From contig JASTWF010000034.1 in assembly GCA_030390025.1 (NCBI GenBank), forward strand, positions 4,588,001 to 4,652,000: a stretch of DNA of 64,000 bases. Reading direction: 5' to 3'. A program made the position numbers and the translations under genes. This document shows, one piece after another, positions 14,905 to 46,616 of the stretch; within the stretch, counting starts at the first letter, position 1, and each line of letters starts with the position of its first letter. The stretch comes from Squalus acanthias (Eukaryota). Under the pieces are notes generated by a model that was given only the letters and a program-made list of their open reading frames with translations, was not told the DNA's origin and searched no databases.

Positions 14905-15806
14905 TCATCCTTTAATGAATTTTACAATCAGAGTAAAGGGATATTTCCCCACATTCTTCAACTGCTCTCTGAACTTAGTCTGGGTCACGGCGTAAATCCC
15001 AGTGTTTGTGCAGCAACTCAGCAGCTGCAGCATGAATCCCAGTTCCATTATAGAATCAGGTATAAGTACAGAATAATACCCCAACCAGTACATCCGGCTC
15101 CATATAGAATACACCATAAACACTGCCCATAACAGGATGAAATTGCCGGAGATAACAAGCAGTAAAATGATGGATTTCCTGCGGCTCTCCATCTCTGGGT
15201 CTCTGGGACTCTCCCCACTGCATGGACCCCGGAGTCTCCTGCGGGCTCTGCTGGCCACTAAAATGTGTCTGACGGTGACACCATTGAGCAGCAGAATCAC
15301 CACAAATGGGACACACGGGGTGAGAATATAATGAAGGAGCTCGATTGTTCCCCAGACCCGTGACAACTGAACATCGATTGTGACATCACAAAACCAGGGG
15401 TTGTTCACAAGCCCATACCGACCTGTGAACATAAAATACCAGGTGATGTCCTTTAAACCGCTCAGCACAGTCACTGTTCCCAGAACCACAGCCGCCGTTT
15501 TCTCGGTGCAATATTTAGTTTTCAGCTTCTGGCAACAAATGGCCACAAATCGATCAAAGGTGAAAGTGACGGTGAACCAGACAGAACAGTCTGTGGCTGC
15601 GAACAGCAGGACGGCGTGGATATTACACACGGGGATGGACCGCACGAAATAAAACTGTTCCCTATAAACAATGGGAATGTGCCTCAATATCAGGTCGAGG
15701 ATAACGACCAGTAGATCCGCCGCTGCCATGGCCACCAGGTAGCGAGTGACACATTTGGAGAGACCGCACTTTCCCCGAGACAGGATCACAATCGTCACTA
15801 AGTTAA
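14905..15806 (-). CDS. Class A GPCR, GPR139/GPR142-like; main coding exon (second half of TM1 through TM7 and stop)
   Basis: Open ORF of ~300 codons: NLVTIVILSRG (TM1), YLVAMAAADLLVV (TM2), TFDRFVAIC (DRY equivalent), YILTPCVPF (TM5), SGNFILLW (TM6), SCCTNTGIY (TM7). Acceptor ttcccttccacacAG at 15807-15808, phase 1. Confidence 0.92.
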
Positions 15807-17124
15807 CTGTGTGGAAGGGAAATAAACAGGGAAATTATTCATCAGGCTGGGAGCAAAAGCAGCAGTTTGAGGGAATTCGGGGTGAAATCTGCAACTCACT
15901 ACCGACATTGAATGATATAATCTAATCCTATTACCTGTGGAGCTGAATACAGGGCTTATTGTAAGAATAATCGGGAATACATTGTGGAATCAATAAATGA
16001 AATGGGAATAAATACAATATGAAAGTAACAGACGTTTGATCAAGGAGAGATTAAATGATCGATCTACATTTAGCCCAGCAGACAAAAGCACCGCCCGAGG
16101 TACCAGGGACACAAATGACCAGACCCTCTCAGGAAGCCTTCGTGTCCCGGGATCAGTCAGCATTTGGAGCGGTGCAGTTCGCTTCTGTGCCCCTGTGTTA
16201 GGGAGGGGGAAATCCCGCTTGGATTCCTGCTCCTGGTCAGAATATCCATTCTATTTAGAACTGAAAATGAATGCAACAGCAAAATACAGAAACTGCAACC
16301 TTGGCATGCAATAATTACAGGCAATTGTATGTAAAATGTACGGATGTAATATGACAATGCTAAGATAATAAATACAAGTGCACTGCAGTTATAAAGATAA
16401 CTGGGCTATCAGATATGTTTTGGAGATTGAGTTTACTGCATTTTTGTTGAAATACTCAAATTGTAGCTCATTGAAAGGAAGATTTGCCAAGTAACATTGC
16501 AAATAATGGACTCTGAATTAAAGTAAATAGTGATGATTGACCAGGTAATGTCCCACTAAATTCATTTATCAGCATCGAAATCAGACGACTTAACCCACAG
16601 GCAAAGTGCCGCCAAAAGCTGTTGTGATGTATCTGAACACAAATGGAAGAGATTTATCCTTGAACTTTTCAACTGTTGTTTCCAACTTGTGCAGAAAATA
16701 ATATTAGACGAGAAGATACCAAAGGATTTTCTTATCCTCAGTACTTCAGTTACAATCAGCGGGGATTGTTTATCCTGAAGTGCAGCAGAAGGCAATAGAG
16801 AATCACTCTGGGCCTCACTGACAGATCCACTGAACTGTGACAGACGGGCATGGGATCCAATTGTAAATTCAAAACAATGATCAGAAAGAAATGTATTGAA
16901 ATCTGGCTGAATTAACGTTTTGTGAGAATGTAATTTATCCTTGTAATTCTACTTTAGCCATCAGAAGCAGTGCCAATAATGCAGAACTGGAGAGGGTGGG
17001 AAAGGAGACACTGACTGGAGCTGAATGATTAGCGGATATTTCAGACATTTAAAGATGTGGATGTGATCTGCCAGGATTTGTTGCTGTGACTCTGCAAGTA
17101 ACCATACCGAGCATTAGGTGAAAA

Positions 17125-17256
17125 CAAGAGCAAAATACTGCGCATACTGGAAATCTGACATGAAAACAGGAAATGATGGAAATACTCAGCGGGTCAGGCA
17201 GCATCTGTGGAGAGAGAGAGTAACAGAGTTAACGTTTCAGGTCGATGGCCTTTCGC
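17125..17256 (-). mobile_element. Penelope-like 3' fragment with 13-bp TSD (cattaggtgaaaa)
   Basis: Same sequence as 33838-33965; TSD at 17112-17124 and 17257-17269. Confidence 0.75.
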
Positions 17257-17678
17257 CATTAGGTGAAAAGTCTCCTCAACCAAGACAGCATTCTTCTGAT
17301 CTGATACTAATGTTCAGTGTCGGTAGCAGGCTGATGTTCGTTAAATAAAGAGTCACCTCCAATAAATTTACTTGAGTTGAACATTTGAATCTTGGTAACA
17401 CGAAATCACCTTCAGAATCAATAGCTGACAGCAGCGCGGATGGGATGGGGAACGACAAAGAGAGAAACACAGATAATCATGGGGGGAAAAGTGGGTTGGT
17501 TAGCACCTCCGCTGAGCACCTTCGGGGGGTGAGGGGTAACAGGGCGATATGAGCAGGTTGAGAGGGAGAGAGACGTCTGGAGAGATTCGACACTCACCGA
17601 AGGATTTTTGGGTCCTGAGCACCAATTTGGAATTTCATTTTTATTTAATCTTCCTTCTAACGATATTTAGAAGCTTCG

Positions 17679-18819
17679 ATGGGGGCTGCACTAACTCAGG
17701 ACGTCGTCGTACAGCTTCACCTTCGGAGACAGCAGAGGCGGAGAGAGAGAGAGCGGCAAACGCGACCAGAGGGAGTAGGGCCATCATGAGACCTTACCCT
17801 CCCAGGGTATTCAGGGAGGAATTCTCCCCCTATTTTCCATTTGTCTGAGGAGCAGTGTTTCCAATGGCTGCGCTTCAGTAAGGAGGTGATCACTGAGCTC
17901 TGCCATCTCCTGCAACCAGATCTGCAGCCTCAGTTCAGGATCAGGACGTTACTGTCGGTGGCAGTGAAGGTGACAGTGGCTCTGAATTTCTAAGTCAGCG
18001 GTCCCTTTCAGGCTTCTATTAGGGACATAGTGAATATGTCCCAGTTCGCTGTTCATTGTTGCATCCGAGAGGTGACAAAGGCTTTGTATAAGAGGAGACG
18101 CCAGTACATCTCTTCCCATGACCTGGGACAAACAGCGCGAACGCGCATGTGGCTTTGCGAAGATAGCGGGCTTCCCCATGGTTCAGGGCGCCATTGACTA
18201 CATGCATTTGGCATTGTGGGCACCTCATGAGAATGCAGAGGTGTTCAGAAACCACAAGGGCTTCTACTCTCTGAATGTCCAGTGGGTGTGTGACAACAGG
18301 CAGCTCATACTCGCCGTCAATGCCCGCCATCATGGCAGCAGCGACAACACTTATATCCTGCGCCAGACCGCTGTCGCAGACCTCTTCCAACCATCGTGTC
18401 AACCTAGTGGATGGCTCCTCGGGGACAAGGGCGTTCCACTCTGCACCTGGCTGATGACACCGCTCCATAAACCCAACACCCCTGCCGAGCTGCAATACAA
18501 TGAGAGCCAAACCGCCACCAGGAACCTCAGATTAGACGTCGGGGTCTTCAAACAACGGTTCCGGTGTCTGGACCACTCAGGAGGAGCCCTGCACTAATCT
18601 CCAGAGCGAGTCTCCCTCTTCATTGTTGAGTGCTTCATGCTTCATATCATTGCAATGGTGAGGGCCCAACCATTGCCACCAGGGATTGGTGCACCACCTG
18701 AGGAAAAGGATGAGGAGGAGGATGAAGAGGAGAATCAGCAGCACCAACGTGGGAGGGAGGAGCACAATGTTGCCATTGCAAGGGCCGACCGTGAATGGCT
18801 CATAAGACACCGATTCTAA
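17679..18819 (+). pseudogene. HARBI1-like Harbinger DDE transposase, disrupted
   Basis: RPYPPRVFR, LRFSKEVI, VKVTVALNF*, GFPMVQGAID, NHKGFYSLNVQ, WLLGDKG, KQRFRCLDHSGG motifs; in-frame stops and frameshifts; the expected third acidic residue region is altered. Confidence 0.88.
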
Positions 18820-19139: not shown

Positions 19140-22100
19140 TTCGAGGGTGACCTCCATCACCTACGCACTTCCAAACTTCCCACCCTACTGCTCCTCTGTA
19201 ATGTGGCCCCACTGGCTGCAGCAAGGGTGACCCTCACCCCCTGCGCATATCCCCTTTTCCCAACCTACTGCTCCTCCTAATGTGGCCCCAGTGGCTGCAG
19301 CGAGGGTGAGCTCCATCACCTGCGCACTTCCCCCCTTCCCACGCTACTGCTCCTCCTAATGTGGCCCCAGAGGCTGCAGCAAGGGTGACCTCCATCCCCT
19401 GCGCATATCCCCCCTTCCCACCCTACTGCACCTCCTAATGTGGACCCAGTGGCGGCAGCAAGGGTGACCTCCATCCCCTGCGCACTTCCCCCCTTCCCAC
19501 CCTACTGCTCCTCCTAATGTGGCCCCCTTGGCTGCAGCAAGTGTGACCTCCATCCCCTGCGCACTTCCCCCCTTCCCACACTACTGCTCCTCCTAATGTG
19601 GCCCCAGTGGCTGCAGCGAGAGTGACCTCCATCCACTGCGCACTTCCCCCCTCCCCACCCTACTGCTCCTCTGTAATGTGCCTCACTGGCTGCAGCAAGG
19701 GTGACCTCCATCCGCTGCGCACTTCCCCCCTTCCCAGCCTACTGCTCCTCTGTAATGTGGCCCCACTGGCTGCAGCAAGGGTGACCTCCATCCCCTGCGC
19801 AGATCCCCCCTTCCCACTCTACTGCTCCTCCTAAAGTGGCCCCACTGGCTGCAGCGAGGGTGACCTCCATCCCCTGCGCATATCCCCCCTTCCCACCCTA
19901 CTGCTCCTCCAAATGTGGCCACACTGGCTGCAGCAAAGGTGACCTCCATCCCCTGCGCACTTGCCCCCTTCCCACCCTACTGCTACTCCAAATGTGGCCC
20001 CTCTGGCAGCAGCGAGGGTGACATCCATCCCCTCCGCAGCTCCCCGCTTCCCACCCTACTGCTCCTCTGTAATGTGGCCCCAAAGGCTGCAGCAAGGGTG
20101 ACCTCCATCCGCTGCGCACTTCCCCTCTTCCCACCCTACTGCTCCACCTAATGTGGCCCTAGTGGCTGCAGCGAGGGTGACCTCCATCCCTTGCGCACTT
20201 TTCCCCTTCCCCCCCTACTGCTCCACCTAATGTGGCCCCACTGGCTGCAGCAAGGTTGACCTCCATCCCCTGCGCACTTCCCCCCTTCCCACCCTACTGC
20301 TCCTCCTAATGTGGCCAAACTGGCTGCAGCGAGGGTGACCTCCATCCCCTGCGCATTTCCCCCCTTCTCACCCTACTGCTCCTCCTAATGTGGCCCCACT
20401 GGCTGCAGCAAGGGTGACCTCCATCCCCTGCGCACTTCCCCCCTTCCCACCCTACTGCTCCTCCTAATGTGGCCCACTGGCTGCAGCGAGGGTGACATCC
20501 ATCCCCTCCGCAATACCCCCCCTTCCCACCCTACTGCTCCTCTGTAATGTTTCCCCAGTGGATAGAGCAAGGGTGACCTCCATCCCCTGCGCACTTCCCA
20601 CTTCCCACCCTACTGCTCCTCCGAATGTGGTCCCAGTGGCTGCAGCAAGGGTGACCTCCATTCCCTGCGCATATCCCCCCTTCCCACCCTACTGCTCCTC
20701 TGTAATGTGGCCCCAGAGGCTGCAGCGAGGTTGACCTCCATCCCCTGCGCACTTCCCCCCTTCCCACCCTACTGCTCCTCCTAATGTGGCCCCAGAGGCT
20801 GCAGCAAGGTTGACCTCCATCCCCTGCACACTTCCCCCCTTCCCACCCTACTGCTGCTCCTAATGTGGCCGCAGTGGCTGCAGCAAGGGTGACCTCCACC
20901 CCCTGCGCACTTGCCCCCCTCCCACCCTACTGCTCCTACTAATGTGGGCCCACTGGCTGCAGCAAGGATGACCTCCACCCCCTGCGTACTTCCCCCCTAA
21001 CCACCCTACTGCTCCTCCTAATGTGGCCCCTCTGTCTGCAGCAAGGGTGACCTCCATCCCCTGCGCACTTCCCCCCCTTCCCACACTACTGCTCCTCCTA
21101 ATGTGGCCCACTGGCTGCAGCAAGGGTGACCTCCATCCGCTGGGCATATCCGCCCTTCCCAACCTACTGCTCCTCCTAATGTGGCCCCAGTGGCTGCAGC
21201 AAGGGTGACCTCCATCCCCTGCGCACTTCCCCCCTTCCCACCCTACTGCTACTCTGTAATGTGGCCCCAGAGGCTGCAGCAAGGGTGACCTCCATCCCCT
21301 GCGCACTTCCCCCCTTCCAACCCTACTGCTCCTCCTAATATGGCCCCAGTGACTTCAGCAAGGGTGATCTTCATCCCCTGCGCACTTACCCCCTTCCCAC
21401 CCTACTGCTCGTCTGTAATGTGGCCCCATAGGCTGCAGCAAGGGTGACCTCCACCCCCTGCGCACTTCCCCCCTTCCCACCCTACTGCTCCTCCTAAAGT
21501 GGCCCCAGTGGCTGCAGCAAGGGTGACCTCCACCCCCTGCGCACTTCCCCCCTTCCCACCCTACTGCTCCTCCTAATGTGGCCCCAGCGGCTGCAGCAAT
21601 GGTGACCTCCATCCCCTGCGCACTTCCCCGCTTTCCACCCTACTACTCCTCCGAATGTGGCCCCAGTGGCTGCAGCAAGGGTGACCTCCATCCCCTGCGC
21701 ACTTCCCCCCTTCCCACCCTACTGCTACTCTGTAATGTGGCCCCAGAGGCTGCAGCAAGGGTGACCTCCATCCCCTGCGCACTTCCCCACTTCCCACCCT
21801 ACTGCTCCTCCTAATGTGGCCCCATTGGCTGCAGCATGGGTGACCTCCACCCCCTGCGCACTTCCCCCCTTCCCACCCTACTGCTCCTCCTACTGTGGCC
21901 CCAGTGGCTGCAGCAAGGGTGACCTCCATCCCCGGCGCAGTTCCCCCCTTCCCACCCTACTGCTCCTCCTAATGTGGCCCACTGTCTGCAGCAAGGGTGA
22001 CCTCCATTCGCTGCGCATAACCGCCCTTCCCACCCTACTGCTCCTCCTAATGTGGCCCCAGTGGCTGCAGCAAGGGGGACCTCCATCCCCTGCGCACTTC

Positions 22101-23340
22101 CCCCCTTCCCACCCTACTGCTCCTCTGTAATGTGGCCCCACTGACTGCAGCAAGGGTGACCTCCATCCCCTGTGCACTTACCCCCTTCCCACCCTGCTGC
22201 TCCTCCTAATGTGGCCCCAGTGACTGCAGCAAGGGTGACCTCCATCTCCTGCGCACTTCCCCCCTTCCCACGCAACTGCTCCTCTGTAATGTGGCCCCAG
22301 AGGCTGCAGCAAGGGTGACCTCCACCCCTTGCGCACTTTCCCCCTTCCCACCCTACTGCTCCTCCTAAAGTGGCCCCACTGGCTGCAGCAAGGGTGACCC
22401 TCACCCCCTGCGCATATCCCCTTTTCCCACCCTACTGCTCCTCCTAATGTGGCCCCAGTGGCTGCAGCGAGGGTGAGCTCCATCACCTGCGCACTTCCCC
22501 CTTCCCACCCTACTGCTCCTCCTAATGTGGCCCCAGAGGCTGCAGCAAGGGTGACCTCCATCCCCTGCGCATATCCCCCCTTCCCACCCTACTGCACCTC
22601 CTAATGTGGCCCCAGAGGCTGCAGCAAGGGTGACCTCCATCCCCTGCGCATATCCCCCCTTCCCACCCTACTGCACCTCCTAATGTGGCCCCAGTGGCTG
22701 CAGCGAGGGTGACCTCCATCCCCTGCGCACTTCCCCCCTTCCCACCATACTGTTCCTCTGTAATGTGGCCCCAGTGGCTGCAGCAAGGGTGAGCTCCATC
22801 CCCTGCGCACTTCCCCCCTTCCCACCCTACTTTTCCTCCTAATGTGGCCCCAGTGGCTGCAGCGAGAGAGACCTCCATCCCCTGCGCACATCCCCCCTTC
22901 CCACCCTACTGCTCCTCTGTAATGTGGCCCCACTGGCTGCAGCAAGGGTGACCTCCATCCGCTGTGCACTTCCCCCTTCCCAGCCTACTGCTCCTCTGTA
23001 ATGTGGCCCCACTGGCTGCAGCAATGGTGACCTCCATCCCCTGCGCAGATCCCCCTTTCCCACCCTACTGCTCCTCTGTAATGTGGCCCCAGTGGCTGCA
23101 GCAAGGGTGAACTCCACCCCCTGCGCACTTCCCCCCTTCCCACCCTACTGCTCCTGCTAATGTGGCCCCAGTGGCTGCAGCGAGGGTGACCTCCATCCCC
23201 TACGCACTTCCCCCCTTCCCACCCTACTGCTCCTCCTAATGTGGCCCAAGTGGCTGCAGCAAGGGTGACCTCCATCCCCTGCGCATATCCCCCCTTCCCA
23301 CCCTACTGCTCCTCCTAATGTGGCCCCAGTGGCTGCAGCT
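19140..23340. repeat. Minisatellite, 79/80-bp unit (ctaatgtggccccagtggctgcagcaagggtgacctccatcccctgcgcacttccccccttcccaccctactgctcctc), ~53 copies
   Basis: Head-to-tail units readable throughout. Confidence 0.96.
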
Positions 23341-29042: not shown

Positions 29043-29076
29043 TACTTAGAATTAATAACTGGACATAGATCCTTAC

Positions 29077-29167
29077 TAGAAGCGCCAACAGCAGTGAGGA
29101 GGGGATAGTAGATATTTTGTATATCATAACATATTCCTAATATCCTAAGCACTTCTCCCCAATCCAT
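29077..29167 (-). CDS. GPCR first coding exon '1a' (MDWGEVLRILGICYDIQNIYYPLLTAVGAS+1 nt)
   Basis: ATG at 29167; IYYPLLxAVG TM1 half; phase-1 donor A|GTAAGG at 29076 joins 15806 in frame (…AVGAS-I-NLVTIVIL). Confidence 0.75.
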
Positions 29168-29244
29168 GCCTTCCCTTCTGTGAGTGTCTGGTGGTCTTTG
29201 TGCTGGGGGCAGCGCGCTGACTGTGTGAGGTGACACAGTGAAGG

Positions 29245-29345
29245 GAGCTCCTTATTTAGAGCAGAGGGAAATCCCCGAGTGACATCATTAGGCCTCACTG
29301 TAACTGGCATTAATTACAGTCATTGAACAAACAGACTCATTGAAC
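29245..29345 (-). promoter_or_regulatory. Putative promoter of exon 1a: TATA-like TAAATAA (29252-29258) plus conserved cattaattacagtca-tgaacaaacag module
   Basis: Homologous, with identical 59-bp spacing, to 45741-45830 upstream of exon 1b. Confidence 0.55.
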
Positions 29346-29446
29346 CATTGTCACCACAGCACTTTACTGCAACACAATCTGGCTCACCTTATTGTACACA
29401 GTTTTAAATTAAAAGTGAGCGAATACGCAATATTTCATCTGCCCAT

Positions 29447-29605
29447 AAACATAAGAATATAAGGATTAGGAGCAGGAGTTGGCAATACGGCCCTTCGAGC
29501 CCTTCATTGAATAAGATTATGGCTGATCTTCGACCTCAAATCCACATTCCCCGCACACCCACCCCATCCTCATATCCGTTGATTCCTGTAGAGTCCAAAA
29601 ATACC
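29447..29605 (-). mobile_element. CR1 3' stub
   Basis: acataagaa...aggagcaggag...ggctgatct pattern, the reverse complement of the CR1 tail. Confidence 0.7.
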
Positions 29606-29702
29606 GAGGACTGAACAGAGAGAAGGGAGTTTCTCTTCCTGTATTGATCTAAAACTGAGAACCAAAGAAGAGGAAGTGAGAGAAATAAGAAGGAATAATG
29701 TG

Positions 29703-30166
29703 TTAGCTGTGGCTCCGTGGGTAGCACACTCGCTTCTGACTCAGATGCTTTGGGTTTTAGTCCCACTCCAGGAACTTGGAGCCCATAAATCTAGGCTAAC
29801 ACTCCAGTGCAGTGGTGAGGGAGTGCTGCACTGTCGGAGGTGCCGTCTTTCGAATGAGATGTTAAACCAAGGCCCTGTCTGCGCTCTCAGGTGGACGTAA
29901 AAGATCCCATGGCCTTATTTTGAAGAGGAGCTGGGGAGTTATCCCCGGTGTCATGGCCAATGTTTATCCAAAGATCAATATAACAGAAACAGATTATCTG
30001 GTCATTATCACATTGCCTTTTGTGGGAGCTTGCTGTGCACTAATTGGCTGCCGTGTTTTCCACAATACAACAGTGACTTCACTTCCGAAAGTACTTCATT
30101 GGCTGTAAAGCGTTTTGAGATGTCCGGTGGTCGTGAAAGGTGCTATATAAATGCAAGTCTTTCTGT
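29703..30166 (+). mobile_element. Deu-domain SINE (SacSINE1/AmnSINE1-like), full length
   Basis: tRNA-like head; body gatgttaaacc-aggccc-gtctg...gtaaaagatcccatgg...acagattatctggtcattatcacattg; tail tatataaatgcaagtctttc; recognised from memory of the Deu consensus. Confidence 0.8.
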
Positions 30167-32494: not shown

Positions 32495-33318
32495 CAACCT
32501 GGACGACGTTCAGGATTGGGCTGGTAAGTGGCAGGTAACATTCGCACCACAGACGTGCCAGGCATTACTATGTGCAACAGGCGAGAGTCTAAGCACCTCC
32601 CCTTGACATTCAACAGAATTACCATCGACGAATCCTCCACCATCAATAACCTGGGAGTCACCATTGGCCAGAACCTTAATTGGACCAGACACATAAATAC
32701 TGTGGCAACAAGAGTAGGTCCGAGGCTAGGTATTCTGCAGCGAGTGTCTCACCTCCTGACTCCCCAAAGCCTTTCCACCATCTACAAGGCACAAGTCAGG
32801 AGTGTGATGAAATACACTCCACTTGCCTGGATGAGTGCAGCTCCAACAACACTCAAGAAGCTCGACACCATCCAGGACAAAGCATCCTCCTTGATTGGCA
32901 CACCATTCACTGCCTTAAACATTCACTCCCTCCACCACCGGCGTACCGTGGCTGCAGTGTTTACCATCTACAAGATGCACTGAAGCAACTCACCAAGGCT
33001 TCTTCGGCAACACCTCTCAAACCCGCGACCTCTTCCACCTAGAAGGACAAGGGCAGCAGGTGTATGGGAACACCACCACCTCCAAGTTCCTCTCCAAGTC
33101 ACACACCATCCTGATTCAGAAGTATATCACCGATCCTTCATCGTCACTGGGTCAAAATCCTGGAACTCCCTATCTAACAGCACTGTGGGAGTACCTTCAC
33201 CACATGGACTGCAGCGGTTGAGGAAGGCGGCGCACCACCACCTTCTCAAGGGCTGTTAGGGATGGACAATAAATGCTGGCCTCGCCAGCGACGCCCACAT
33301 TCCAGAAACAAAAAAAAA
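32495..33318 (+). mobile_element. Family-B non-LTR retrotransposon 3' part (CR1-group RT C-terminus) nested in CR1
   Basis: LGVTI...LNWTRHI...STIYKAQVRSVMxYxPLAW; ends in an A-rich tail. Confidence 0.85.
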
Positions 33319-33837
33319 GTTCTCTTGAACTCATTTCAGAAATTCTTCTCCCTCTCTGTCCATTATACTATTACAATCTCAGTCAATATTACGATAATTG
33401 AAGTCCCCCATTATTACTACTCTACATTTCTTCCACCTCTCTAATTTCCCTGCAGATTTGCTCCTCTATATCCTTCCCACTAGTTGGTGGCCTATAGAAT
33501 ACACCTAGTAGTGTAATGGAACCTCTATTGATTCTTAATTCTAACCAAATAGATTCTGACCTTGACCCCTCCAAGACATCCTCTCTCTCCAGCACTGTGA
33601 TATTCTCCTTAATCAATACTGCCACCCCAACTCCTTTCTTTCCTTCCACTATCTTAACCGAACATCTTATATCTAGGAATATTTAGTACCCACTCCTGCC
33701 CTTTTTAGAACCAGGTCTCTGTTATCGCCTCAACATAATTTTCCTATGTGGCTATTTGCGCCTGCAGCTCACCCACCTTATTTACCACGCTTCGTGCGTT
33801 TACACACATACACTGTAAACGTTTCTCCGACCTTACA

Positions 33838-34521
33838 ATAGCAAAATACTGCGGATGCTGGAAATCTGAAACAACAACAGAAAATGCTGGACACACCCAA
33901 CAGGTCAGGCAGCATCCGTGGAGAGAGAAACAGTGTTAACGTTTCAGGTCTGTGACCCTTCGTCAGAACTGGTAAAGTTAGAGATGTAACAGGTTATAAG
34001 CAGGTGTCGGGGCAGGGAAATGTCGGAGGGGAGGAAATAACAAAAGAGATGGTCTGTGATAGGGTGGAAGGCAGGAGTGGTTAAATGTTGCTAATGGGAA
34101 TGGCAGAATCATCAACAGCTGCCGCCTGAAAAAATGGGGGCCGAGGTTATGGTCTGAAATTGTTGAACTCAGTGTTGAGTCCAGAAGGCTGTAAAGTGCC
34201 TAATAGAAAGATGAGGTGTTGTTCCTCGAGCTGACGTTGTAAGAGGCCGAGGACAGAGAGGTCAGGGCGGCAGCTGTTGATGATTCTGCCATTCCCATTG
34301 GCAACAATTAACCACTCCTGCCTTCCACCCTATCACAGACCATCCCTTTTGTTATTTCCTCCCCTCTGCCCCCTTTCCCTGCCCCTGCAACTGCTTATAA
34401 CCTGTTCCATCTCTAACTTTTTCCAGTTCTGATGAAGGGTCACAGACCTGAAACGTTACCTCTGTTTCTCTCTCCACGAATGCTGCCTGACCTGCTGAGT
34501 GTTTCCAGCATTTTCTGTTTC
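33838..34521. mobile_element. Penelope-like element remnant in inverted configuration (~260-bp arms), each arm with a minimal hammerhead core
   Basis: 33873-34128 is the reverse complement of 34262-34521; CTGA(T/C)GA-A-gggtc-aca-gacct-GAAAC-GTTA at 34429-34458 (+) and ~33936-33966 (-). Confidence 0.8.
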
Positions 34522-35932
34522 TATCTTAGACCTTCTTGGATTCTCCGTTAGTCTGAACCCACATAGTACCGTACTATTTCAGGCTCTACTGCTATCTGTC
34601 TCTCCCTATCTTTTGTGAACCTTGTTTCTCCTTTCTAATGCCACATCCTGGTGGCCCATCCCCCTGCAGATTAGATTAAATGCTCCCCAACAGCACGAGC
34701 AACCACCCCCGCCCGCACCTCGTGAGTGTATTCGTTCCGGCTATGGTCAGGTGCAACCCGACCGGCCTTTTCAGGTCCCACCTCCCCCAGAACCGGCCCC
34801 AATGTCCCAGGAATCTAAAGCCCTCCCTCCTGCACCATATCTCCAGCCACACATTTAATTGCTCTATCCTCCTATTTCTATATTCACTAGCTCGTGGCAC
34901 CTGGAGTAATCTGGAGATTACTACCTTCAAGGTCCTGCTTTATAATCTCTTTCCTAGCTCCCTATTATCTGCCTACAGGATCACATCCCTCTCTCTTCCT
35001 ATGTAGATGATGCCATTATGAACCACGGCTTCAGTCTGTTCACCATCACCCCCTCAGAATGTCCTGCAGCCACTCAGTGACATCCTTGACCCTGGCACCA
35101 GGGAGGCAACATATCATCCTGGAGTCACGTCTGTGGCTGGAGAAACACCTGTCTGTTCCTTTAACTATCGAATCTCCTATCACTATTGATTTCCCGACCT
35201 TCCTGCGCCCCCCAACAGCTCAGCCACCAGTGGTGCCGTGGACTTGGCTCTGGCTGTACTCCTCAGAGGAACCATCGAATACTGGTTCGAGAGTGAGATG
35301 CACTCATGGGACTCCTACAATAAATGTGTGGTTCTCCTTGTTTGTCTGACGGTCACACATTCCGTCTCTGCCTGCACACTCTTATGCTGCGGGGTGACCA
35401 CCTCCCGAAACGTGCTATCCACGGAGCTCTCAGCCTCACGGATGCAACGCAGTGACGCCAGCTGCTGCTCAAGCTCCGAAACCCGTGGGAAGTGTCCTGG
35501 ATGTGCATTCCATGGGACTGAGGTGCCCTGCCAAGTCTCTATTTAATGGACTACCAACTAACTTAACGGAATTAAACTCAAGACTTCAAAAACATCACAA
35601 TAAACATACTATTTTTCTTTGCAGCGTCTTCCCTTGTGCTGATGTCACTTACCGAACTCCCTTCCACTCGCTCCCAGCTCCGGGTTCTCTGGCCTACCTT
35701 TATCTCCGGCCGCTCCTCTCGCTCTCTCCTCCTTCCCCCACTGCTCCTAATTCCCAAGCGTTCCAAATTCACAACCTTAGCACTCTGTTTAGACCACTGA
35801 CAAAATGGATTTCCCCACACTCGTTCTCTGATTTATTCCATACCAGGCCATCAGGATTAAATAAATAATAAATAAATGGTCTTAAATGGCGGGATCTGAG
35901 AGAATATGCCAGTGATGGAACGATGGGACTCG

Positions 35933-36643
35933 ACTAGATTACACTGCTCCCACCTCAGTCCAGGAATTTCATTCCCAGGGCTGCCGAGTTTACACTGCTC
36001 CCGCCTCAATCCAGGAATTTCATTCCCAGGGCAGCCTAGATTACACTGCTCCCACCTCAGTCCAGGAATTTCATTCCCAGGCACAGCCCAGATTACACTG
36101 CTCCCACCTCAGTCCAGGAATTTAATTCCCAGGGCTGCCTAGATTACACTGCTCCCACCTCAGTCCAGGAATTTCATTCCCAGGGCTGCCTAGATTACAA
36201 TGCTCCCGCCTCAATCCAGGAATTTCATTCCCAGGGCTGTCTAGATTACACTGCTCCCACCTCAATCCAGGAATTTCATTCCCAGGGCTGCCTAGATTAC
36301 ACTGCTCCCGCTTCAGTCCAGGAATTTCATTCCCAGGGACAGCCTAGATTACACTGCTCCCACCTCAGTCCAGGAATTTAATTCCCAGGGCTGCCTAGTT
36401 TACACTGCTCCCGCCTCAGTCCAGGAATTTAATTCCCAGGGCTGCCTAGATTACACTGCTCCCGCTTCAGTCCAGGAATTTCATTCCCAGGGACAGCCTA
36501 GATTACACTGCTCCCACCTCAGTCCAGGAATTTCATTCCCAGGGACAGCCTAGATTACACTGCTCCCACCTCAGTCCAGGAATTTCATTCCCAGGGCTGC
36601 CTAGTTTACACTGCTCCTGCCTCAATCCAGGAATTTAATTCTC
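35933..36643. repeat. Minisatellite, 51-bp unit (ctagattacactgctcccacctcagtccaggaatttcattcccagggctgc), ~14 copies
   Basis: Head-to-tail units. Confidence 0.95.
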
Positions 36644-36864
36644 AGTTCATTTCTCTTTTGCCTGAAAATAGAAGAAAAAGAAGAAGAAGAATGACCTCAC
36701 CCAGACAAACATGTCATCGTGTTTGACCGAGGGGAAGAATAATTAAAAGGAGCAAAGGATTAAAACGAAGGATCAAAGGAAAACACTTAAAATATTAACC
36801 AATCAGATAAATACGCTGTAAGCACCTCAATACTCCATGAAACTCAGTGGAGACATTAAATTCC

Positions 36865-37480
36865 CGCATAATCATACTCACAGAACCATACCTGTCAGTC
36901 AACATTCTCAAACCCTCCATCACCATTCCAGGGTCTGCACAGACCCACCAGAGGTGGGGACACAGGGGTATACAATCCGGAGGGAGAAACCCTGTGAGTC
37001 CTGAACATTGCCTGAGGATATAATGAAGTCTGATGGCTTCCAGTCAGACATGGGCAAGGTAACTTCCTGCCGATTACCACCTACCGCCCTCCCTCAGCTG
37101 TTGAATCGGCACATCTTCATGCTGAACACCAGTTGATGGGAGCACCGAGAGCAGAAAGGGCGCAAATTATACTCTGTGTCGGGAGGGGGAAACTTCAATG
37201 TTCATCACCAAGAGTTGCTCGGAAGTACCATCATTAACCGAGCCCTGAAGAACACAGACTGGGATTGCGGCAGGTGGTGGGAGATCCAAGATGAGAGAAA
37301 AGCCTGCTTGACCTCATCCTCACCAATCTATCTATCGCATATACATCTGTCCATGACGATATTGGTAGGACTGACCACCGCTCAATGTGTGTGGAGAATA
37401 AGTCTCGCCTTCACCCTGAGGCCACCCTCCATCATATCATGTGCATCTACCATGGTGATCAATGGAATGAAATTAGAAAA
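36865..37480 (+). mobile_element. Old LINE endonuclease (APE) fragment, probably family B
   Basis: TTYRPPSA, GNFNVHH and LDLILTN-like motifs in broken frames. Confidence 0.6.
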
Positions 37481-37634
37481 TTAGACAGAGTCAAGCGATC
37501 CCAACACATCAAATTATTTCAAAGCTTTCATATCCTGTTGTGAATGGTGATGAACAATAGAGCCGTTGCCCCAGAGCCCTGAAAATTTCTCCTTTTCAAG
37601 TTTGCATCCAATTACCTTTTGGAAATTACAGTTA

Positions 37635-38330
37635 AGAAAGGAAGAAAGAATTGAATTGATACGGCGCTTTTCACGATATTTGGGATGTGCTTTCAAGCCA
37701 ATGACGTCCTTCCTTTTGAAGTGAAGTCACTGTTGTACTGTCGGAAACGTGACAGCCAATTTGAGCACATCAAGCTCCCACAATCAGCAATGTGATAATG
37801 AACAGATAATATGCTTTAGAGATGTTGATTGAGATAAATATTGGCCAGAACACCGGGGTTAACTCTGCTGCTCTTCTTCAATATAATTCCATGGGATCTT
37901 TTACGTCCAACTTATAGAACAGACAGGTTTAACGTCTCATCTGAGACATGGCACCGCTGACAGTGCAGTGCTCCCTCAGTACTGCCCCGCTGACAGTGAT
38001 GCGCTCCCTCAGTACTGCCCCTCTGACAGTGATGCGCTCCCTCAGTACTGCCCCGCTGACAGTGATGCGCTCCCTCAGTACTGCCCCTCTGACAGTGATG
38101 CGCTCCCTCAGTACTGCCCCGCTGACAGTGATGCGCTCCCTGATTACTGCCCCTCTGACAGAGATGCGCTCCCTCAGTACTGCCCCTCTGACAGAGATGA
38201 TCTACCTCAGTACTGCCCCTCTGACAGTGATGTGCTCCCTCAGTACTGCCCCGCTGAAAGAGATGCACTCCGTCAGTACAGCCCCTCCAACAATGCAGCA
38301 CTCCCTCAGTACTGGCTTGAATGCAGTTTG
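37635..38330 (-). mobile_element. Deu-domain SINE with an internal 33-bp tandem expansion (37955-38315, ~11 copies)
   Basis: Reverse complement of the 29703-30166 body; unit gctccctcagtactgccc(c/g)tctgacagtgatgc corresponds to the single-copy segment at ~29805-29845. Confidence 0.8.
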
Positions 38331-38332
38331 TC

Positions 38333-41300
38333 ATGGAGTGCAGCTTGGAACCGAGTGTTAAGCTGCGAGTTTGGTGAGTGAGGGAGTTCATGGAGGGATA
38401 TGTTCCTTTCTTTTTCTGTCTTTGACAGCTTCCAAGACCTGGACAGTATTTCTACAGTCCAGTCATTAAAGTAAAAGTTAGGTCTCGAGTTTAGAGTAAG
38501 TAGTGTTTAAAGGGAAGCAAGATACCTAGTGTATTTAATATTCTTTAATTTAAAGGGAGTAAATTATGGGTAGGACATGTCAGGGCAGCTCGGCAGCGTG
38601 GAGTGCTCCTCCTGTGCTATGTTGGAAGTGAGGGACACTTTAGGTGTCCAGGGCGAACACATGTGCAGGAAGTGTCTCCAGCTGCAGCTACTCGGAATCC
38701 GCGTTTCGGAGCTGGAGCTGCGAATGGAGTCACTGTGGAGTATCCTGGAAGCTGAGATCTTCCTGGATAGAACATTTAACGAGGTGGTCAGACCACAGGT
38801 AAAGAGTGCATAGGCAAGCAGGAAATGGATGACCGCTACACAGCGTAAAAGAACTAGGAAGGCAGTGCAGGAGTCCCCTGGGTCCATCTCCCTCTCCAAC
38901 AGATTTTCCGTTTTGGATACTGATGGGGGAGATGGTTTCACAGGGGAATGCAGCAAGAGCCAAGTCCATGGCAGTATGAGTGGCTCAGCTGTACAGGAGT
39001 GGGGGTGTGTGGTAAAGAGTGGGAGAGCAATAGTGATAGGGGATTCTATCGTAAGGGGAACAGTTAGATGTTTCTGTGGCCACAGACGTGACTCCAAGAT
39101 GGTATGTTGCCTCCCTGGTGCCAGGTTCAAGGATTTAACTGAACGGCTGCAGTGTATTCTGAAGGGGGAGGGCGAACTATCAGAGGTCGTAATCCACATT
39201 GGTACCAACGACATGGGTAGAAAGAGGGATGAGGTCCTGCAACAAGTATTTAGGGAGCTAGGTAGCAGATTAAAAAGCAGGGCCTCAAAGGTTGTAATCT
39301 CTGTTTTACTCCCGGTGCCATGTGCTAGTGAGTATAGGAATAGAAGGATAGAGCAGATGAATGCGTGGCTAAAGACTTGGTGCAGGAGGGAGAGCTTTAG
39401 TATCCTGGATCACTGTTTCTGCTTCTGGGGAAAGTGGGACCTGTACAAGTCGGACGGGATGCACCTGAACCGGAACGGGACCAACATTCTTGCGGGGAGA
39501 TTTGCTGGTACTGTTGGGGGGAGCGGCGGTAATCTAACTTGGCAGAGGGATGGGATACGGAGTGGAGCTATAGTAGGGGGTGAATCACAGCCAAATATAG
39601 AGGAAAAAACAAGTCAGCCTGGAAGTCAGAGCGAATATGTAACGGCACAAGGGAGTATGGCAAGGCTGGATGTCATTTATTTTAATGCAAGGAGTCTTGC
39701 GTGTAAGGCAGATGAATTGAATGTGTTGGTGAACACATGGGATATGATACTGTTGCTATCACAGAGACATGGTTGAGGGAGGGGCAGGTCTGGCAGCTCA
39801 ATATTCCGGGGTATAGAATCTTCAGGCGAGACAGAGGGGTATGTAAAAGCGGAAGGGGTGTCGTAATATTACTCAAGGAGTCAATTACTGCTGTAAGGAG
39901 GGATGATATCTTAGCAGGTTCCTCTAATGAGGCCATATGGGTAGAACTTAACAACAAAAAGTGAGCAAGCACTTTGCTGGGAGTGTACTATAGGGCGCCA
40001 AACAGTCAGGGGGAGATAGACGAATAGATATGTAGGCAAATCTCAGAGAAGTGTCGAAATAATAGGGTAATATTAGTAGGGGATTTCAACTTCCCCAATA
40101 TCAACTGGGATAGTGAGAGTGTGAAAGGCTTAGAGGGTGCGGAATTCTTAAAGTGCATCCGGAAGAGCGTTTTGCGCCAGCATGTAGAAAGTCCTACCAG
40201 ACAGGGGGCGGTTCTGAACCTAATTCTAGGGAATGCAGCTGGGCAAGTGGTGGAAGTGTTAGTAGGAGAGCATTTTGGTGACAGTAACCATACTTCGGTG
40301 AGATGTAAGGTAGTCGTGGAAAAGGACAAAGACGGACCGGAAATAAAGGTTCTAAATTGGGGAAATGCCGAATTTAATATGATAAGGCCGGATCTGCCAA
40401 AGTGGAGTGGATTAGCTACTTGTAGGAACATCCACATCAGAGCAGTGGGAGTCTTTCAGAAAGGAAATAGAGAGTGTACAACGCCAACATGTTCCCGTAA
40501 AGGTCAAGGGTGGGACCAACAAGCCCAGGGAACCCTGGATGTCAAGGGATATATAAGAATGGATTAGGAAAAAAAGGGAGACTTTTGGCAGATACAAAGG
40601 ACTAAAACAGTGGAAGACCTAAAGGAGTATAGAAAGTGCAGGGGGGTACTGAAAAAAGACATTAGGAGAGCAAAGAGGGGGCATGAAAAAACACTTGCGG
40701 GCAAAATAAAGGAAAATCAAGGTGTTTTATGAGTATATGAAGGGCAAGACGATAACCAGGGGAAGAGTAGGGCCCATTAGGGACCAAAGTGGCATTCTGT
40801 GTGTAGAGCCTGAAGATGTGGGTGTGGTTTTAAATGAATATTTTGCAGCTGTGTTCACTATGGAGAAGGACGATGTAGGCATAGAAATCAGGCAGGGCGA
40901 TTGTGATAAACTTGAACAAAATAGTATTGCGATGGAGGAGGTGCTAGCGGTTTTAGTGAGCATAAAAGTGGATAAATCCCCAGGCCCAGACGAGATGTAT
41001 CCCAGGCTGCAGTGTGAGGCAAGGGAGGAGATTGCAGGGGCTGTGACACAAATTTTCAGAACCTCTCTGGTCACAGGGGAGGTGCCAGATGACTGGAGAA
41101 CAGCTGGCGTATACCATTATTCAAGAAGGGTAGTAGGGATAAACCAGGGAATAATAGGCCAGTGAGCCTAACATCAGTGGTAGGGAAATTATTGGAAAAA
41201 ATTCTGAGGGACAGAATTAGTCTACACTTGGAGAGGCAAGGATTAATTAAGAATGTTCAGCATGGCTTTGTAAGGGGGAGATCAGTACTAACCAATTTGA

Positions 41301-42552
41301 TTTAATTTTTCGAGTGGGTGAATCGGTGTGTGGATGAGAGTAGTGCAGTTGATGTTGTCCACATGGACTTCAGTAAGACTTTTGACAATGTCCCACATGG
41401 GAGACTGGTCAAGAAGGTAAGAGCCCATGGGATCCAGGGCAATTTGGCACATTGTATCCAAAATTTGTTTCGTGGCAGGAGGCAGAGGGTGGTGGCCGAA
41501 GGTTGTTTTTGTGACTTGAAACCTGTGTCCAGTGGTGTACCGCAGGGATCGGTGCTGGGTCCTTTGCTGTTTGTAGTGTACATTAATGATTTAGATAGGA
41601 ATGTAGGAGGTATGATCAGTAAGTTCGCAGATGACACGAAAATTGGTGGAGTGGTAAATAGCGAGGTGGGAAGCCTCAGGTTACAGGACGATATAGACTG
41701 GTTGGTTAGATGGGCAGAACAGTGGCAAATGGAAATTAACCCTGAAAAGTGTGAGGTGATGCATTTTGGGAGGACTAACAAGGCAAGGGGATACACATTG
41801 AATGCTGAGACCCTAGGAAGGACAGAGGATCAGAGAGACCTTTGTGTGCATGTACATAGATCCCTGAAGGCAGCAGGACAGGTAGATAAGGTGGTTAAAA
41901 AGGCATATGGGATACTTGCCTTCATTCGCCGAGGCATAGAATATAAGAGCAGGTAGGTTGTGTTAGAGACGTACAAAATGCTAGTTAGGCCACAGCTGGA
42001 ATACTGTGTGCAGTTCTGGTCGCCACACTATAGGAAGGATGTGATTGCATTGGAGATGGTGCAGAGGAGATGACCAGGATGTTACCTTTGCTGGAGCGCT
42101 GCAGCTATGAAGAGAGACTGGACAGCCTGGGGTTGTTTTCCTTAGAGCAGAGAACGCTGAGGGGGGACCTGATTGAGGTGTACAAAATTATGAGGGGCAT
42201 AGATAGGGTTGATAGAAATAAATGTTTCCCTTAGTAGAGGGGTCATTAACCAGGGCGCATAGTTTCAAGGTAAGCGGCAGGAGGTTTAGAGGGGATTTCA
42301 GGAAAATCTTTTTCACCCAGAGTGTGGCTGGAATCTGGAACTCACTGCCTGAAACGGTGGTAGAGGCAGGAATCTTCACAGCATTCAAGAAGCATTGAGA
42401 TGAGCACTTGAAATGCCATAGCATACAAGGCTACGGACCAAGTGCTGGAAAATGGGAATAGAATGACTGGGCTTGATGGCCGTAGCGAACACAATGGACC
42501 GAAGGGCCTCTTTCTGTGCTGTATAACTATGACTCTATATATGACTCTATGA
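38333..42552 (+). mobile_element. Essentially full-length CR1 LINE (5'UTR, ORF1 zinc finger/leucine zipper + SGNH esterase, ORF2 APE+RT), inactivated
   Basis: ORF1 CSSC..CRKC..LELRMESL, GDSIV, GTND, DGMH; ORF2 motifs in ORFs 39737-41956; multiple stops and frameshifts; (ctatga)n tail. Confidence 0.95.
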
Positions 42553-42554
42553 CA

Positions 42555-44415
42555 GCGGCATAATTTCAAAGTTTGAAAATGATAGAAAACTCGGAAATGT
42601 TAATAAACAGTGAGAATGATAGTAACAGACTTCAGGAGGACGCCGACAGACTGGTGAAATGGGCAGACACATGGCAGATACAATTTAACACAGAGAAGGG
42701 TGAAGTGATACATGTTGGCAGGAAGCATGAGCAGAGGTAATATAAACTAAACGGTACAATTTCAAAGCGGGTGAACGATCAGAGAGACCTGGTGTGTACT
42801 TACACAAATCTTTGAAGTTGACAGGACAAGTAGTGATGTCTGTTAATAAAGCATACGGAGTCCTTGGCTTTACAAACAGAGACACAGAGTAACAAAATCC
42901 AGGTAGAAATGTTAACCTTTTAAAAAGCATTGGTTAGACCCCAGCTGGAGTATTGTGTCCAATTCTGAGCACCACACCTGTCATGTGGGACATTGTCAAA
43001 GGCCTTACTAATATCTACGTGGACTACATCAAATGCACTCCCCTCATCGACCCTCCTCATTGCCTCCTCAAAAAATTCAATCAAGTTAGTCAGACACGAA
43101 CTTCCCTTAACATTACCATGCTGACTGTCCTTGATTAATCTGAGCCTTTCTAAATGCCGATTTATACTGCCCCTCAGAATTATTCAATATTTTTTCCACC
43201 ACCAAGGTTAGACTGACTGCCCTGTAATTACTCGGTCTATCACTTTCTCCCTTTTTAAACAATGGTACAACGTTAGCAGTCCTCCAGTCCTCTGGCATCA
43301 TGCCTGTAGCCAGAGAGGATTGGAAAATGATGGTCTGAGCCTCCGCTATTTCCTCCCTTAACAGCCTGGGATACATTTCATCCGAGCCCCGTGATTTATC
43401 TAATTTCAAAGATGCTAAACCCCTTAATGTTTCCTCTGTCACTATGTTTGTCTCATCTAATATTTCACACACCTCCTCCTTAACTACAATGTCTGCATCG
43501 TCTCACTCTTCTGTGAAGACAGACACAAAGTATTTATTAAGAAACATATCCACGTCTTCCGCCTCTACACACAGATTAACGTTTTGTTCTATAATAGGCC
43601 ATACTCTTTCCCTAGTTATCCTCTTGCTCTTGATGTATATATAAAACATCTTTGGGTTTTCCTTGCCAATATTTTTTCATGCCTCTCTTTGCTTTCCTAA
43701 TTTCCTTTTTAATTTTACCCCTGCACTTTCTATACCCCCTCTAGCCTTTCTGTAGTATTGAGCTCTCGGTATCTGACAAAAGCTTCCTTTTTTTCCCTTA
43801 TCCTACCCTGTATTCCACTTGACATCCAGGGGGCTCTAAATTTGGAAGTCCCATCCTTTATCTTTTTGGGAATATATTTGCTCTGAGTCCTCACTATCTC
43901 CTCGTTGAATTCTTCCCACGGCTCTGCACTGATTTCCAATTAAGAAGCTGTTTCCAGTCCACTTTTCCTAAATCACATCTCAGCTTAGTAAATTTGGCCT
44001 TTCCCTAATTGAAAACTTTTAAACTTGGTCAGTCTTTGTCGTTTTCCATTAGGGAGATTAATATAGATGTTCCAGATTGTAATGGGTTTTGATAGAGTAA
44101 GTAAGTCGGTTTCCAGAGGCAGAATTGTGGATAACCACAGGAAAGAAATTTAAAGTAATTGGCAAAAGAACCAGAGGATGGATGAGAATTTTCTTCACGC
44201 ACTGAGTTTTGATCTAGAATGCACTGTCTGAGAACGTGGTGGAAGCAGTTTCATTAGTAAATTTCGAAAGGGAATGGGGTAATTAGATGAAGGGGAATTT
44301 TTTATGGGGCTCTGATTAAAGAGTAGGACTGAATTGATAACTCTTTTAAAGAGACGGCATGGACACGATGGGCCGAATGCCCTCCGTCTGTGATGTACCG
44401 TTCTATGATTCTATG
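42555..44415. mobile_element. Old + strand CR1 3' part (42555-42980 and 44050-44415) split by a - strand CR1 internal fragment (42980-44050)
   Basis: RT C-terminal motifs on +; PEDWRTANVVPLFKKG on -; attctatg tail at ~44400. Confidence 0.8.
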
Positions 44416-44619
44416 AGCAAGAGACAGAGAGAGAGCAGAGGGAGAGAGAAGAGGGGGAGAGAGAGAAAGGGAGAAAGAGAGAAATATAAAGAGACTGAAA
44501 GACAGGGAAAGGTACAGAGGGAGAGAAATTAACTTTAAAAGGGGAATTGGATAAATATCTGAATTGGAACAATTTGCAGGACTATGGGAAAAGAGCAAGG
44601 GAATGGAACTAATTGCAGG

Positions 44620-45090
44620 TGTGAGGTGATGGAGGCTTTTTAACATGAGAAGAATATTTAAATCGAGTTGTTGCCGGATCGGCAGCCAATGTTGGTCAGT
44701 GATCACAGGGGTGATGGGTGAACGGGACATGATATGTGTTAGGATATGGGCAGCAGAGTTTTGGATGAGCTCTAGTTTATGGAGGCTTGTTACTGGGAGG
44801 CCGGCCAGGAGAGCATTGGAATAGTCGACTCTGGATTTAGCAAATGTATGGATGAGGGTTTATTCAGCGGAAGGGCTGAGGTGGAGAGGAGATGGGTGAA
44901 ATTTTGGAGGTGGCAGTCGGCAGGACTGGAGATTCAAAAGATATGAGTTCGGAACTCAGCTCAGGGACAAAGAGATTTCAGAGGTTGCAAACAGTCTGGT
45001 TTAGCCTCAGACATTGACCAGGGAGGGGGACTGAATCGGTAGATAGAGAATGGAGTTTGTGACGAGGACCGAAGACAATGGCTCTTCCCA
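44620..45090 (-). mobile_element. L2-clade LINE fragment (RT C-terminus)
   Basis: SPITPVxxDxHWLPIRQxLDxxIL motif characteristic of the L2 ORF2 end. Confidence 0.7.
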
Positions 45091-45346
45091 AGACGTAAAT
45101 GAAAAAAATAATAGCACAGTGAAACGAGGTTTACACATCCAATTTCTGGATATAGAGACTTATCAAGGACACCAACAGCAGCAAAGAATGAAGAATAGTA
45201 ATACAGTTAGCAAAGGTTTGCAGAGTTAATAGCTGGATAGTGAGACTTACCTGGAACAACAACTGCAGCAAGGAGGGGAGAGTAAATGACACGAACAGTA
45301 ATACAGTAAAACATGGTTAACAGAATAGCTGGACAGAGAGACTTAC

Positions 45347-45611
45347 CAGGCACCCCAACAGCAGCAAGGAGGGGATAGTAAATGTATTGAATAATCTGAA
45401 GTGCCACATCTGTCCGCCAGTTTAATGATATATAATCATAATATGCTGAAAGAAAGTTAATATCCGAGCTGAAACTCCTGCCCATTGTTGTAACATTCCA
45501 ATCTCCTGTTATCAGATTCTGATCCATTGTTGTAACATTCCAATCTACTGTTCTCAGATTCTGATCCATTGTTGTAACATTCCAATCTGCTGTTCTCAGA
45601 TTCTGATCCAT
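45347..45611 (-). CDS. GPCR first coding exon '1b' (88 codons+1 nt): repetitive glycosylated N-terminus plus first half of TM1
   Basis: (MDQNLRTxDWNVTT)x3-MGRSF...IIQYIYYPLLAAVGVP; consensus donor G|GTAAGT at 45346, phase 1, in frame with 15806 (…AVGVP-V-NLVTIVIL). Confidence 0.8.
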
Positions 45612-45734
45612 TGTTGTAACATTCCAATCTACTGTTCTCAGATTCCGACTCCCTCTCTGTGGATCAGCGCGCTGATCCCTGTCAGTGCTGGAGGTGATGC
45701 TCCCACTGACACTATGTGATAACACATTGAAAGG

Positions 45735-45938
45735 AGTCCCTTATTAATAGAAGATGGCAACCCTGCACTGATACAATCAGAGTCCATGGAGACTGACATT
45801 AATTACAGTCACTGAACAAACAGCTTCAGTTAACCCGTGGAGACTGACATTAATTACAGTCACTGAACAAACATCTTCAGATAACCCGTGGAGACTGACA
45901 TTAATTACAGTCACTAAACAAACAGCTTCAGTTAACCC
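45735..45938 (-). promoter_or_regulatory. Putative promoter of exon 1b: TATA-like TATTAATAA (45741-45749) plus three tandem 51-bp copies of the conserved module
   Basis: tggagactgacattaattacagtcactgaacaaacagcttcagttaacccg x3 at 45787-45938; homologous to 29245-29345. Confidence 0.6.

Positions 45939-46585: not shown

Positions 46586-46616
<31 letters not shown>

Follow-up and report, generated by a model that had tools for sequence, protein, structure and literature searches.

The 64,000-nt stretch of DNA analysed here, called the window below, comes from Squalus acanthias (assembly GCA_030390025.1, contig JASTWF010000034.1, positions 4,588,001 to 4,652,000, forward strand). On its minus strand lies a receptor gene in which two first coding exons, 1b and then 1a, precede a single core exon. 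The locus probably belongs to a very large family of shark receptor genes. In this gene, 1b is the exon likely to be in use and, because selection was seen only on this far exon, 1a is likely a non-functional, inherited intronic leftover rather than a working switch. New here are the recognition of this layout as one inherited, subfamily-wide unit and the quantification of opposite selection on its two first exons.

Selection on the two first exons

Selection was analysed in 49 copies of 1a and 35 copies of 1b, of which 36 and 20, respectively, were chosen by promoter likeness. The ratio of nonsynonymous to synonymous differences (pN/pS) and the variant tests were computed pairwise or by distinct variants, with the changes undated. 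The copies not chosen by promoter likeness (12 of 1a and 15 of 1b) gave the same selection pattern with wider intervals.

Exon 1b is open in 34 of the 35 copies, the remaining one being frameshifted, and carries a GT donor in all 35. Its last 11 residues, which lie in transmembrane helix 1 (TM1), are identical in 34 of the 35 copies, with a TM1 pN/pS of 0.01 (0-0.06), and a 27-codon ectodomain segment has a pN/pS of 2.58 (1.63-4.66). The 'stops' counted at hypervariable 1b codons are an artefact of scoring single changes against the commonest codon, and the translations contain none. In exon 1b, selection is therefore purifying on the TM1 part and diversifying on the ectodomain.

In contrast, 1a is disabled in 16 of its 49 copies (5 with the ATG lost, 4 with stops and 7 with indels, four of the latter also with a damaged donor), in 8 different lesion patterns. 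The difference from 1b in broken copies gives a Fisher p of 0.0007, calculated on copies that are not independent. The pN/pS of 1a is 0.87 (0.58-1.48) overall and 1.05 in TM1. Among the 42 indel-free copies, the 73 distinct variants comprise 49 missense, 17 silent, 6 disabling and 1 junction change, against neutral expectations of 48.5, 16.6, 7.1 and 0.8. The 33 open copies give much the same picture, with a pN/pS of 0.89 (0.53-1.52) overall and 1.22 in TM1, 13 different TM1 ends, and Asp in place of a near-constant Gly in 9 of the 33. In 16 of these open copies the TM1 stretch contains a charged residue, His or an extra Pro. Of the two donors, only that of 1b has G at -1 and T at +6. As a class, 1a evolves neutrally.

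The preliminary description of this locus had proposed that promoter choice could swap the N-terminus of one receptor, a reading not supported by an exon 1a free of coding constraint beside an exon 1b both strongly constrained and diversifying. Its alternative, that 1b is an orphan, had the roles, as they now stand, the wrong way round. Since 1b is constrained and 1a neutral, the supposed orphan is probably the working exon and 1a likely the passenger; in other sharks 1b is canonical for the family, and here it lies at an ordinary distance from its core (30 kb, compared with 18-34 kb across 10 units). A live dual promoter of the UGT1A or GCNT2 kind, in which either exon is spliced to the core wherever 1a is open, for a short bare or a long glycosylated N-terminus, and broken 1a copies reflect birth-and-death loss, is a rival reading. 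Relics and pseudogenes are also found among the variable exons of UGT1 clusters, according to the accessible part of PMC1885805, and all promoter elements are present at the 1a of the window. However, the coding-constraint signal is missing even among open 1a copies, 16 of 33 with the TM1 residues described above; the donor lacks the two bases seen in that of 1b, and 1a is dead in both complete units examined on another contig (C7, below). We consider a live dual promoter unlikely.

A recurrent unit and the mosaic structure of the locus

The features of the locus are given in Table 1. Both first exons join the core in phase 1 without a stop, giving 331 aa from 1a (AVGAS-I-NLVT) and 389 aa from 1b (AVGVP-V-NLVT), and three N-glycosylation sequons are present in 1b (N11, N25 and N39) and none in 1a. 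No second core was found in the window by tblastn and blastn with the core exon, and 158 homologous cores gave 0 matches in 29168-45346. About 88% of this gap between 1b and 1a consists of matches to unrelated loci or tandem repeats, and the window is free of N gaps. The preliminary description had reported two first exons and one core on the same strand, phase-1 GTAAG donors in mid-TM1 with open joins, no second core in a repeat-rich gap, and ectodomains differing in sequons; on all of these it was accurate, with exact coordinates.

Table 1 Features of the 1b-1a-core locus, in positions of the window
Feature	Position	Strand	Description
Exon 1b	45611-45347	-	265 nt, long-class first coding exon, 88 aa; donor CTG/GTAAGT at 45341-45346
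Exon 1b, make-up	45347-45611	-	14-aa sequon repeats, hypervariable segment, constant TM1 start
42-bp array inside/near 1b	45482-45645		Encodes the 14-aa sequon repeats
Exon 1a	29167-29077	-	91 nt, ATG start, 30 aa, short-class, open in this copy; donor CTA/GTAAGG at 29071-29076
Core exon	15806-14905	-	902 nt, AG acceptor, rest of TM1 to TGA stop, 299 codons, class A GPCR (G protein-coupled receptor)
Core acceptor	15807-15840	-	Polypyrimidine tract and AG; AG in 18/18 cores checked
1a promoter-like block	29200-29400	-	19-nt dyad motif 29304-29322; AATAAGG box 29250-29256
1b promoter-like block	45660-45938	-	AATAAGG box 45739-45745; three 51-bp repeats 45787-45938 with the dyad motif in each
Degenerate tandem TM1/donor copies behind 1b	45150-45290	-	Second donor 96 nt downstream, in frame here
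Core+1a block	13082-35501		~99% identical to the paralogous C1087 unit outside tandem arrays
Nearest-paralogue switch zone	34265-37951		From C1087 to C218/C3315; includes 51-bp minisatellite 35934-36645
1b block	37951-47298		98-99% identical to the C218 and C3315 units; 94-95% past ~47.5 kb

The same arrangement recurs well beyond the window. Three stretches of contig C2671, picked for gene density and together 1,074 kb long, contain 13 full cores, of which 8 have the complete 1b-1a-core order and 2 have 1b with only the upstream, motif-bearing half of the 1a promoter. The remaining three have 1b only, 1a only and neither, the last being a core with a premature stop. These units occur on both strands. 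Counting first exons against cores across the cluster, a check suggested with the preliminary description, thus gave 12 1b and 9 1a exons for the 13 cores. One extra 1b has no core in view, and both it and the 1a-only core adjoin a 500-N gap. On C7, a chromosome-scale contig whose cores, of an older subfamily, are 88-89% identical to that of the window, the order 1b-1a-core was found in both of the complete units examined, with 1a split at the same site by a ~750-bp repeat insertion. Among other paralogous units, C3315 carries 1b-1a-core with the 1a promoter replaced, C1087 has a 1a-core unit without 1b, and C218 shows the order 1b-1a-gap-1b-1a-core. In C218:220001-290000 (L021-L027), four first exons precede one core, and the 500-N gap at 248942 may hide a core. 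Stretches of C29 and C3 with a 1b cassette and a more distant promoter, and no core, were left out of the count.

Genome-wide promoter patterns matched 307 sites of the 1a type and 295 of the 1b type, with 0 in the controls, so that the same parts recur hundreds of times, far beyond chance. The 1b-1a-core arrangement is a repeated, inherited unit of a subfamily, not a local accident, and is likely present in about 300 genes of the S. acanthias genome. A collapsed tandem cluster as a one-off event, the simpler alternative raised in the preliminary description, is contradicted by its presence at 8 of 13 C2671 cores and in both C7 units.

The locus itself is a mosaic (Table 1). Of 415 sites in 27-35 kb that distinguish C1087 from C218, 406 have the C1087 letter in the window; in 38-45 kb, 324 of 348 such sites have that of C218. 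The far boundary of the 1b block, beyond which the C218 and C3315 units fall to lower identity, adjoins a 47-bp repeat. As a result of these blocks, nearly the same 1b ectodomain precedes cores differing by 4-5%. The simplest reading of the pattern suggests germline recombination or conversion. The mosaic may instead come from mis-assembly, but this would take two mis-joins, one for each boundary of the 1b block.

Such an error, or an orphan 1b that lost its own core and left 1a-core as the gene, is in our view very improbable. A mis-join between paralogues could mimic the switch at the minisatellite, and the orphan-looking 1b and the 1a-only core beside N gaps are of the kind expected. On the other hand, an orphan exon would not hold TM1 constant in 34 of 35 copies, the order recurs in both orientations and on several contigs, there is no gap in the window, and the layout is common to both donor paralogue types.

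These observations are consistent with the following course of events. A founding rearrangement between neighbouring family members would have put a long-class and a short-class first exon before one core, and the unit would then have been amplified about 300 times by segmental duplication. Transcription would start at the 1b promoter, and splicing of 45347 to 15806 would yield a 389-aa receptor with a glycosylated, hypervariable N-terminus, 1a being removed as part of the intron. Cores would likely exchange N-termini through recombination or conversion within the long, repeat-rich intron, and not through promoter choice. A two-level scheme, in which an old alternative-promoter pair is still switchable in open copies such as that of the window while ~11-kb cassettes of promoter plus 1b are swapped in the germline, is possible though doubtful. 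If true, it would mean that a long/short exon pair is shared with other sharks, and that minisatellite-bounded cassettes recombine hypervariable ectodomains and ligand pockets combinatorially in a repertoire of ~2,000 receptors.

Several further features accompany exon 1b. Each 42-bp coding repeat unit contributes one N-glycosylation sequon, and the copy number ranges from ~1 to 6 among 1b copies and varies in other sharks too. An out-of-frame ATG at 45622, 11 nt before the 1b start and derived from the repeat unit, opens a short overlapping frame. The degenerate TM1/donor tandem copies behind 1b are present in the C7 subfamily as well; their second donor was considered as a conserved alternative donor and ruled out, since no more than 14 of 35 copies keep it open and in frame. 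In the intron between 1a and the core, a DDE_Tnp_4 transposase fragment (18076-18597, E=9e-17) adjoins a 79-bp array at 19144-23339. Other tandem arrays lie at 2379-12870 (32 bp x 328, a repeat that occurs on C1087 as well), 14205-14849 (27 bp x 24, directly behind the core stop codon) and 50430-54142 (47 bp x 79). An Rfam search of the window gave no match.

Promoters, exon classes and transcripts

The blocks upstream of 1a and 1b are homologous (72% over 127 nt, E=2e-12), as the preliminary description had noticed. These putative promoters share a 19-nt motif, present once at 1a and three times at 1b, and a TATA-like AATAAGG box. The dyad motif (TGAC, 2 nt, TAATTA, 2 nt, GTCA) has 626 exact copies in the genome, including copies in more distant family clusters; as the motif comes close to being a mirror repeat, the control for this count carries no information. 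It resembles a promoter signature common to the whole family, and we take its TAATTA core to be of homeodomain type. At L027:150-365, summed contig depth in runs X1-X4 was 970-2,560 in the 1a promoter bin and 2-7 in the adjacent exon bin, an excess that is probably due to the collapse of similar copies.

Comparison with other sharks, made with protein models only, bears on the origin of the two exons. In all 39 scored 1a copies, and in 0 of 35 1b copies, the juxtamembrane segment resembles the short, D-class N-termini of other sharks more closely. Classification of 106 homologues gave 62 long-class, 10 D-class and 13 unclassified models, and 21 without a recognisable first exon. Exon 1a is not a recent copy of 1b, and the two belong to separate first-exon classes, both represented in other-shark gene models. 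The 1a N-terminus itself occurs in none of the best 120 matches listed, and a weak search of longer proteins, made with the 1a peptide extended by 15 codons upstream, gave no match. In a core tree built without GPR139 or GPR142 sequences, the window-subfamily cores group with long-class Pristiophorus cores (support 0.84), with the D-class cores next out.

D-class first exons in other sharks, together with the retention of the layout in most units and in two subfamilies, would suit a live dual promoter. So would two Heptranchias models, P0130 (long-class) and P0131 (D-class), a pair with the accessions XP_067836187.1 and XP_067836163.1, whose cores are identical at 298 of 298 residues; the genes with exons similar to the long exon of P0130 have cores that agree with its own at only 221-222 of 298. 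These are automatic models, however, and may represent two genes; the pair could reflect exon capture, a double layout or a prediction chimera.

Contigs of runs X1-X4 on a paralogous 1a-core unit cover intron and promoter, and one crosses the acceptor unspliced; no 1a-core joint on that unit was present among the X1-X4 matches listed, which in such DNA-like data is evidence neither for nor against splicing. In run X8, from another, related organism, one contig has the TM1 part of a first exon (YYPLLAAIGVP) spliced to the core acceptor. The 30 letters of this join, which is not from this gene, cannot tell the exon class with certainty, and it supports the core splice site for the family only. 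Low-level use of the open 1a in this copy may occur.

Several points weigh against reading 1a as a leftover and the 1b block as an exchanged cassette. In the window, 1a starts with ATG, is open and ends at a GT donor, and the same holds for 33 of the 49 copies. A per-copy simulation expected 15.9 (10-21) disabled 1a copies among the 42 without indels and 9 were seen; this naive neutral simulation ignores shared ancestry, so that shared changes are counted repeatedly, and the deficit is gone in the distinct-variant test. At 91 nt, 1a gives wide intervals in which a small constrained subset could be missed, and the samples are non-random (promoter-likeness picks and gene-dense regions), with possible allelic duplicates in the assembly. 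The placement of the cores in the tree does not appear to fix which way the founding rearrangement went. Neither junction of this gene was seen in a transcript, runs X1-X4 being DNA-like and X8 being from another organism. In Mantel tests on 10 units, only 1a and core were correlated (rho 0.61-0.64, p about 0.004); the other tests, of low power, were null, even the core intron and the core being uncorrelated, and a family-wide decoupling of 1b from the core is not established by them. Finally, the central 100 bp of the window 1a promoter differ from two C7 copies at 5 and 8 positions, compared with 28 and 29 of 160 in the flanks (p=0.004 and 0.03).

This last contrast bears on a further rival, in which the 1a exon is dead and the promoter block before it persists as an enhancer inside the intron, or as the source of a non-coding or truncated transcript that tunes the 1b form. 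Where the two C7 copies agree, 1 of 89 sites is changed at the motif and nearby bases, compared with 19 of 142 elsewhere, while the exon has decayed, and the two C2671 units with half a 1a promoter retain the motif-bearing half. In 10 young copies, however (3 of 13 were omitted, with the promoter absent, an insertion, or identity to the window), the 1a promoter is no better conserved than exon plus intron (34/165 versus 29/145, p=1.0). Between the two C7 copies, its centre and flanks diverge alike (11 and 12 of 100), and one unit is entirely without 1a. Other 1a promoter copies show 5-12 and 8-15 central differences from the C7 copies, values similar to the 10-14% seen at fourfold-degenerate sites of the core; for the 1b promoter itself the difference is 15%. 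Past constraint on the 1a promoter is plausible, and its retention as a regulatory element at present seems improbable.

The receptor family and its relation to known systems

The core scores against Pfam 7tm_1 at E=2.8e-20 (73.3 bits, curated cut-off 30.5) and is therefore a class A (rhodopsin-like) GPCR. Its identity to elasmobranch models is 76-82% for nearly all of the best 120 matches listed. These models, from Heptranchias perlo, Heterodontus francisci and Pristiophorus japonicus, bear the automatic NCBI/UniRef name 'probable G-protein coupled receptor 139'. The locus fits this elasmobranch expansion in its high core identity, in the place within TM1 where the variable N-terminus gives way to the core, and in the long (sequon-repeat) and short (D-class) N-termini of these predicted proteins.

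In the S. acanthias genome, at least 131 scored core copies share 87-100% identity, and a 26-nt TM3 pattern occurs at 2,008 sites, with 0 in the control, a count that takes in broken copies and possibly allelic duplicates. Two of 18 cores checked are broken. The core pN/pS is 1.19, the core being as variable as the first exon. Variation among 17 cores is concentrated at residues ~43-56, 118-147 and 229-253, approximately the extracellular loops and helix tops, and the intracellular parts are nearly constant. Copy number and diversifying selection are indirect signs of a possible chemosensory role, and the family is probably a ligand-diverse sensing repertoire.

Human GPR139 is the closest solved structure (PDB 7VUG and 9M42; 33.6 bits, E=2e-7, residues 1-281). 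The accessible part of PMC5430874 gives F109, H187, W241, R244 and N271 as the residues of GPR139 that bind Trp/Phe, with R244 and N271 holding the polar part of the ligand in the model. As read from the structure-match alignment, the equivalents of F109 and W241 are retained, those of R244 and N271 are both Phe, P6.50 is Val, and the alignment at H187 is uncertain. Identity as GPR139 itself was rejected, given the weak match, the changes to Phe and the ~2,000 family sites. The similarity to GPR139/GPR142 is thus distant, and the shark family is diversifying, whereas GPR139 is described as highly conserved across vertebrates in the accessible text of PMC12208981.

The literature search, outside which subscription journals and supplements may hold gene-family tables, found no account of the family or of the layout, and the accessible parts of PMC11979771 and PMC8455134 do not name this receptor family. 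The latter states a relative paucity of GPCRs in cartilaginous fishes, against which this very large and diversifying family stands out. The many loci with 'two first exons, one core' in the genome are one inherited layout amplified about 300 times, and gene models should use the distant exon 1b. The dead 1a beside its selected twin provides an internal neutral control for measuring selection on the family, and the mosaic suggests that receptor bodies exchange hypervariable N-termini in the germline.

Variable-first-exon clusters include the clustered protocadherins, UGT1A, GCNT2 and UGT2A (accessible part of PMC1885805). Like the protocadherin and UGT1A clusters as described there, the shark locus has tandem paralogous cassettes, here of putative promoter plus first exon, a common downstream exon, one splice phase and a shared motif before each first exon. 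In those clusters, a single conserved constant region serves many variable exons, all of them spliced into functional mRNA. In the shark, only two cassettes are present, one of them neutral, so that fewer than two first exons are under selection, and the core is multiplied with every unit and diversifying. In the analogy to protocadherins and UGT1A drawn in the preliminary description, the two-cassette layout is thus real and conserved, and the parallel ends with selection on 1b only and a core that is multiplied and diversifying.

Olfactory and vomeronasal receptors form birth-and-death multigene families with segmental duplication and recombination between paralogues. The shark family, although not one of them by sequence, is similar in its hundreds to thousands of copies, mixed orientation, broken copies and diversifying outward-facing parts, and differs in the fixed passenger of its amplified unit, a second first exon in decay. 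The locus works like a member of a birth-and-death receptor family with a passenger exon, though it resembles a two-member array of the UGT1A/protocadherin type.

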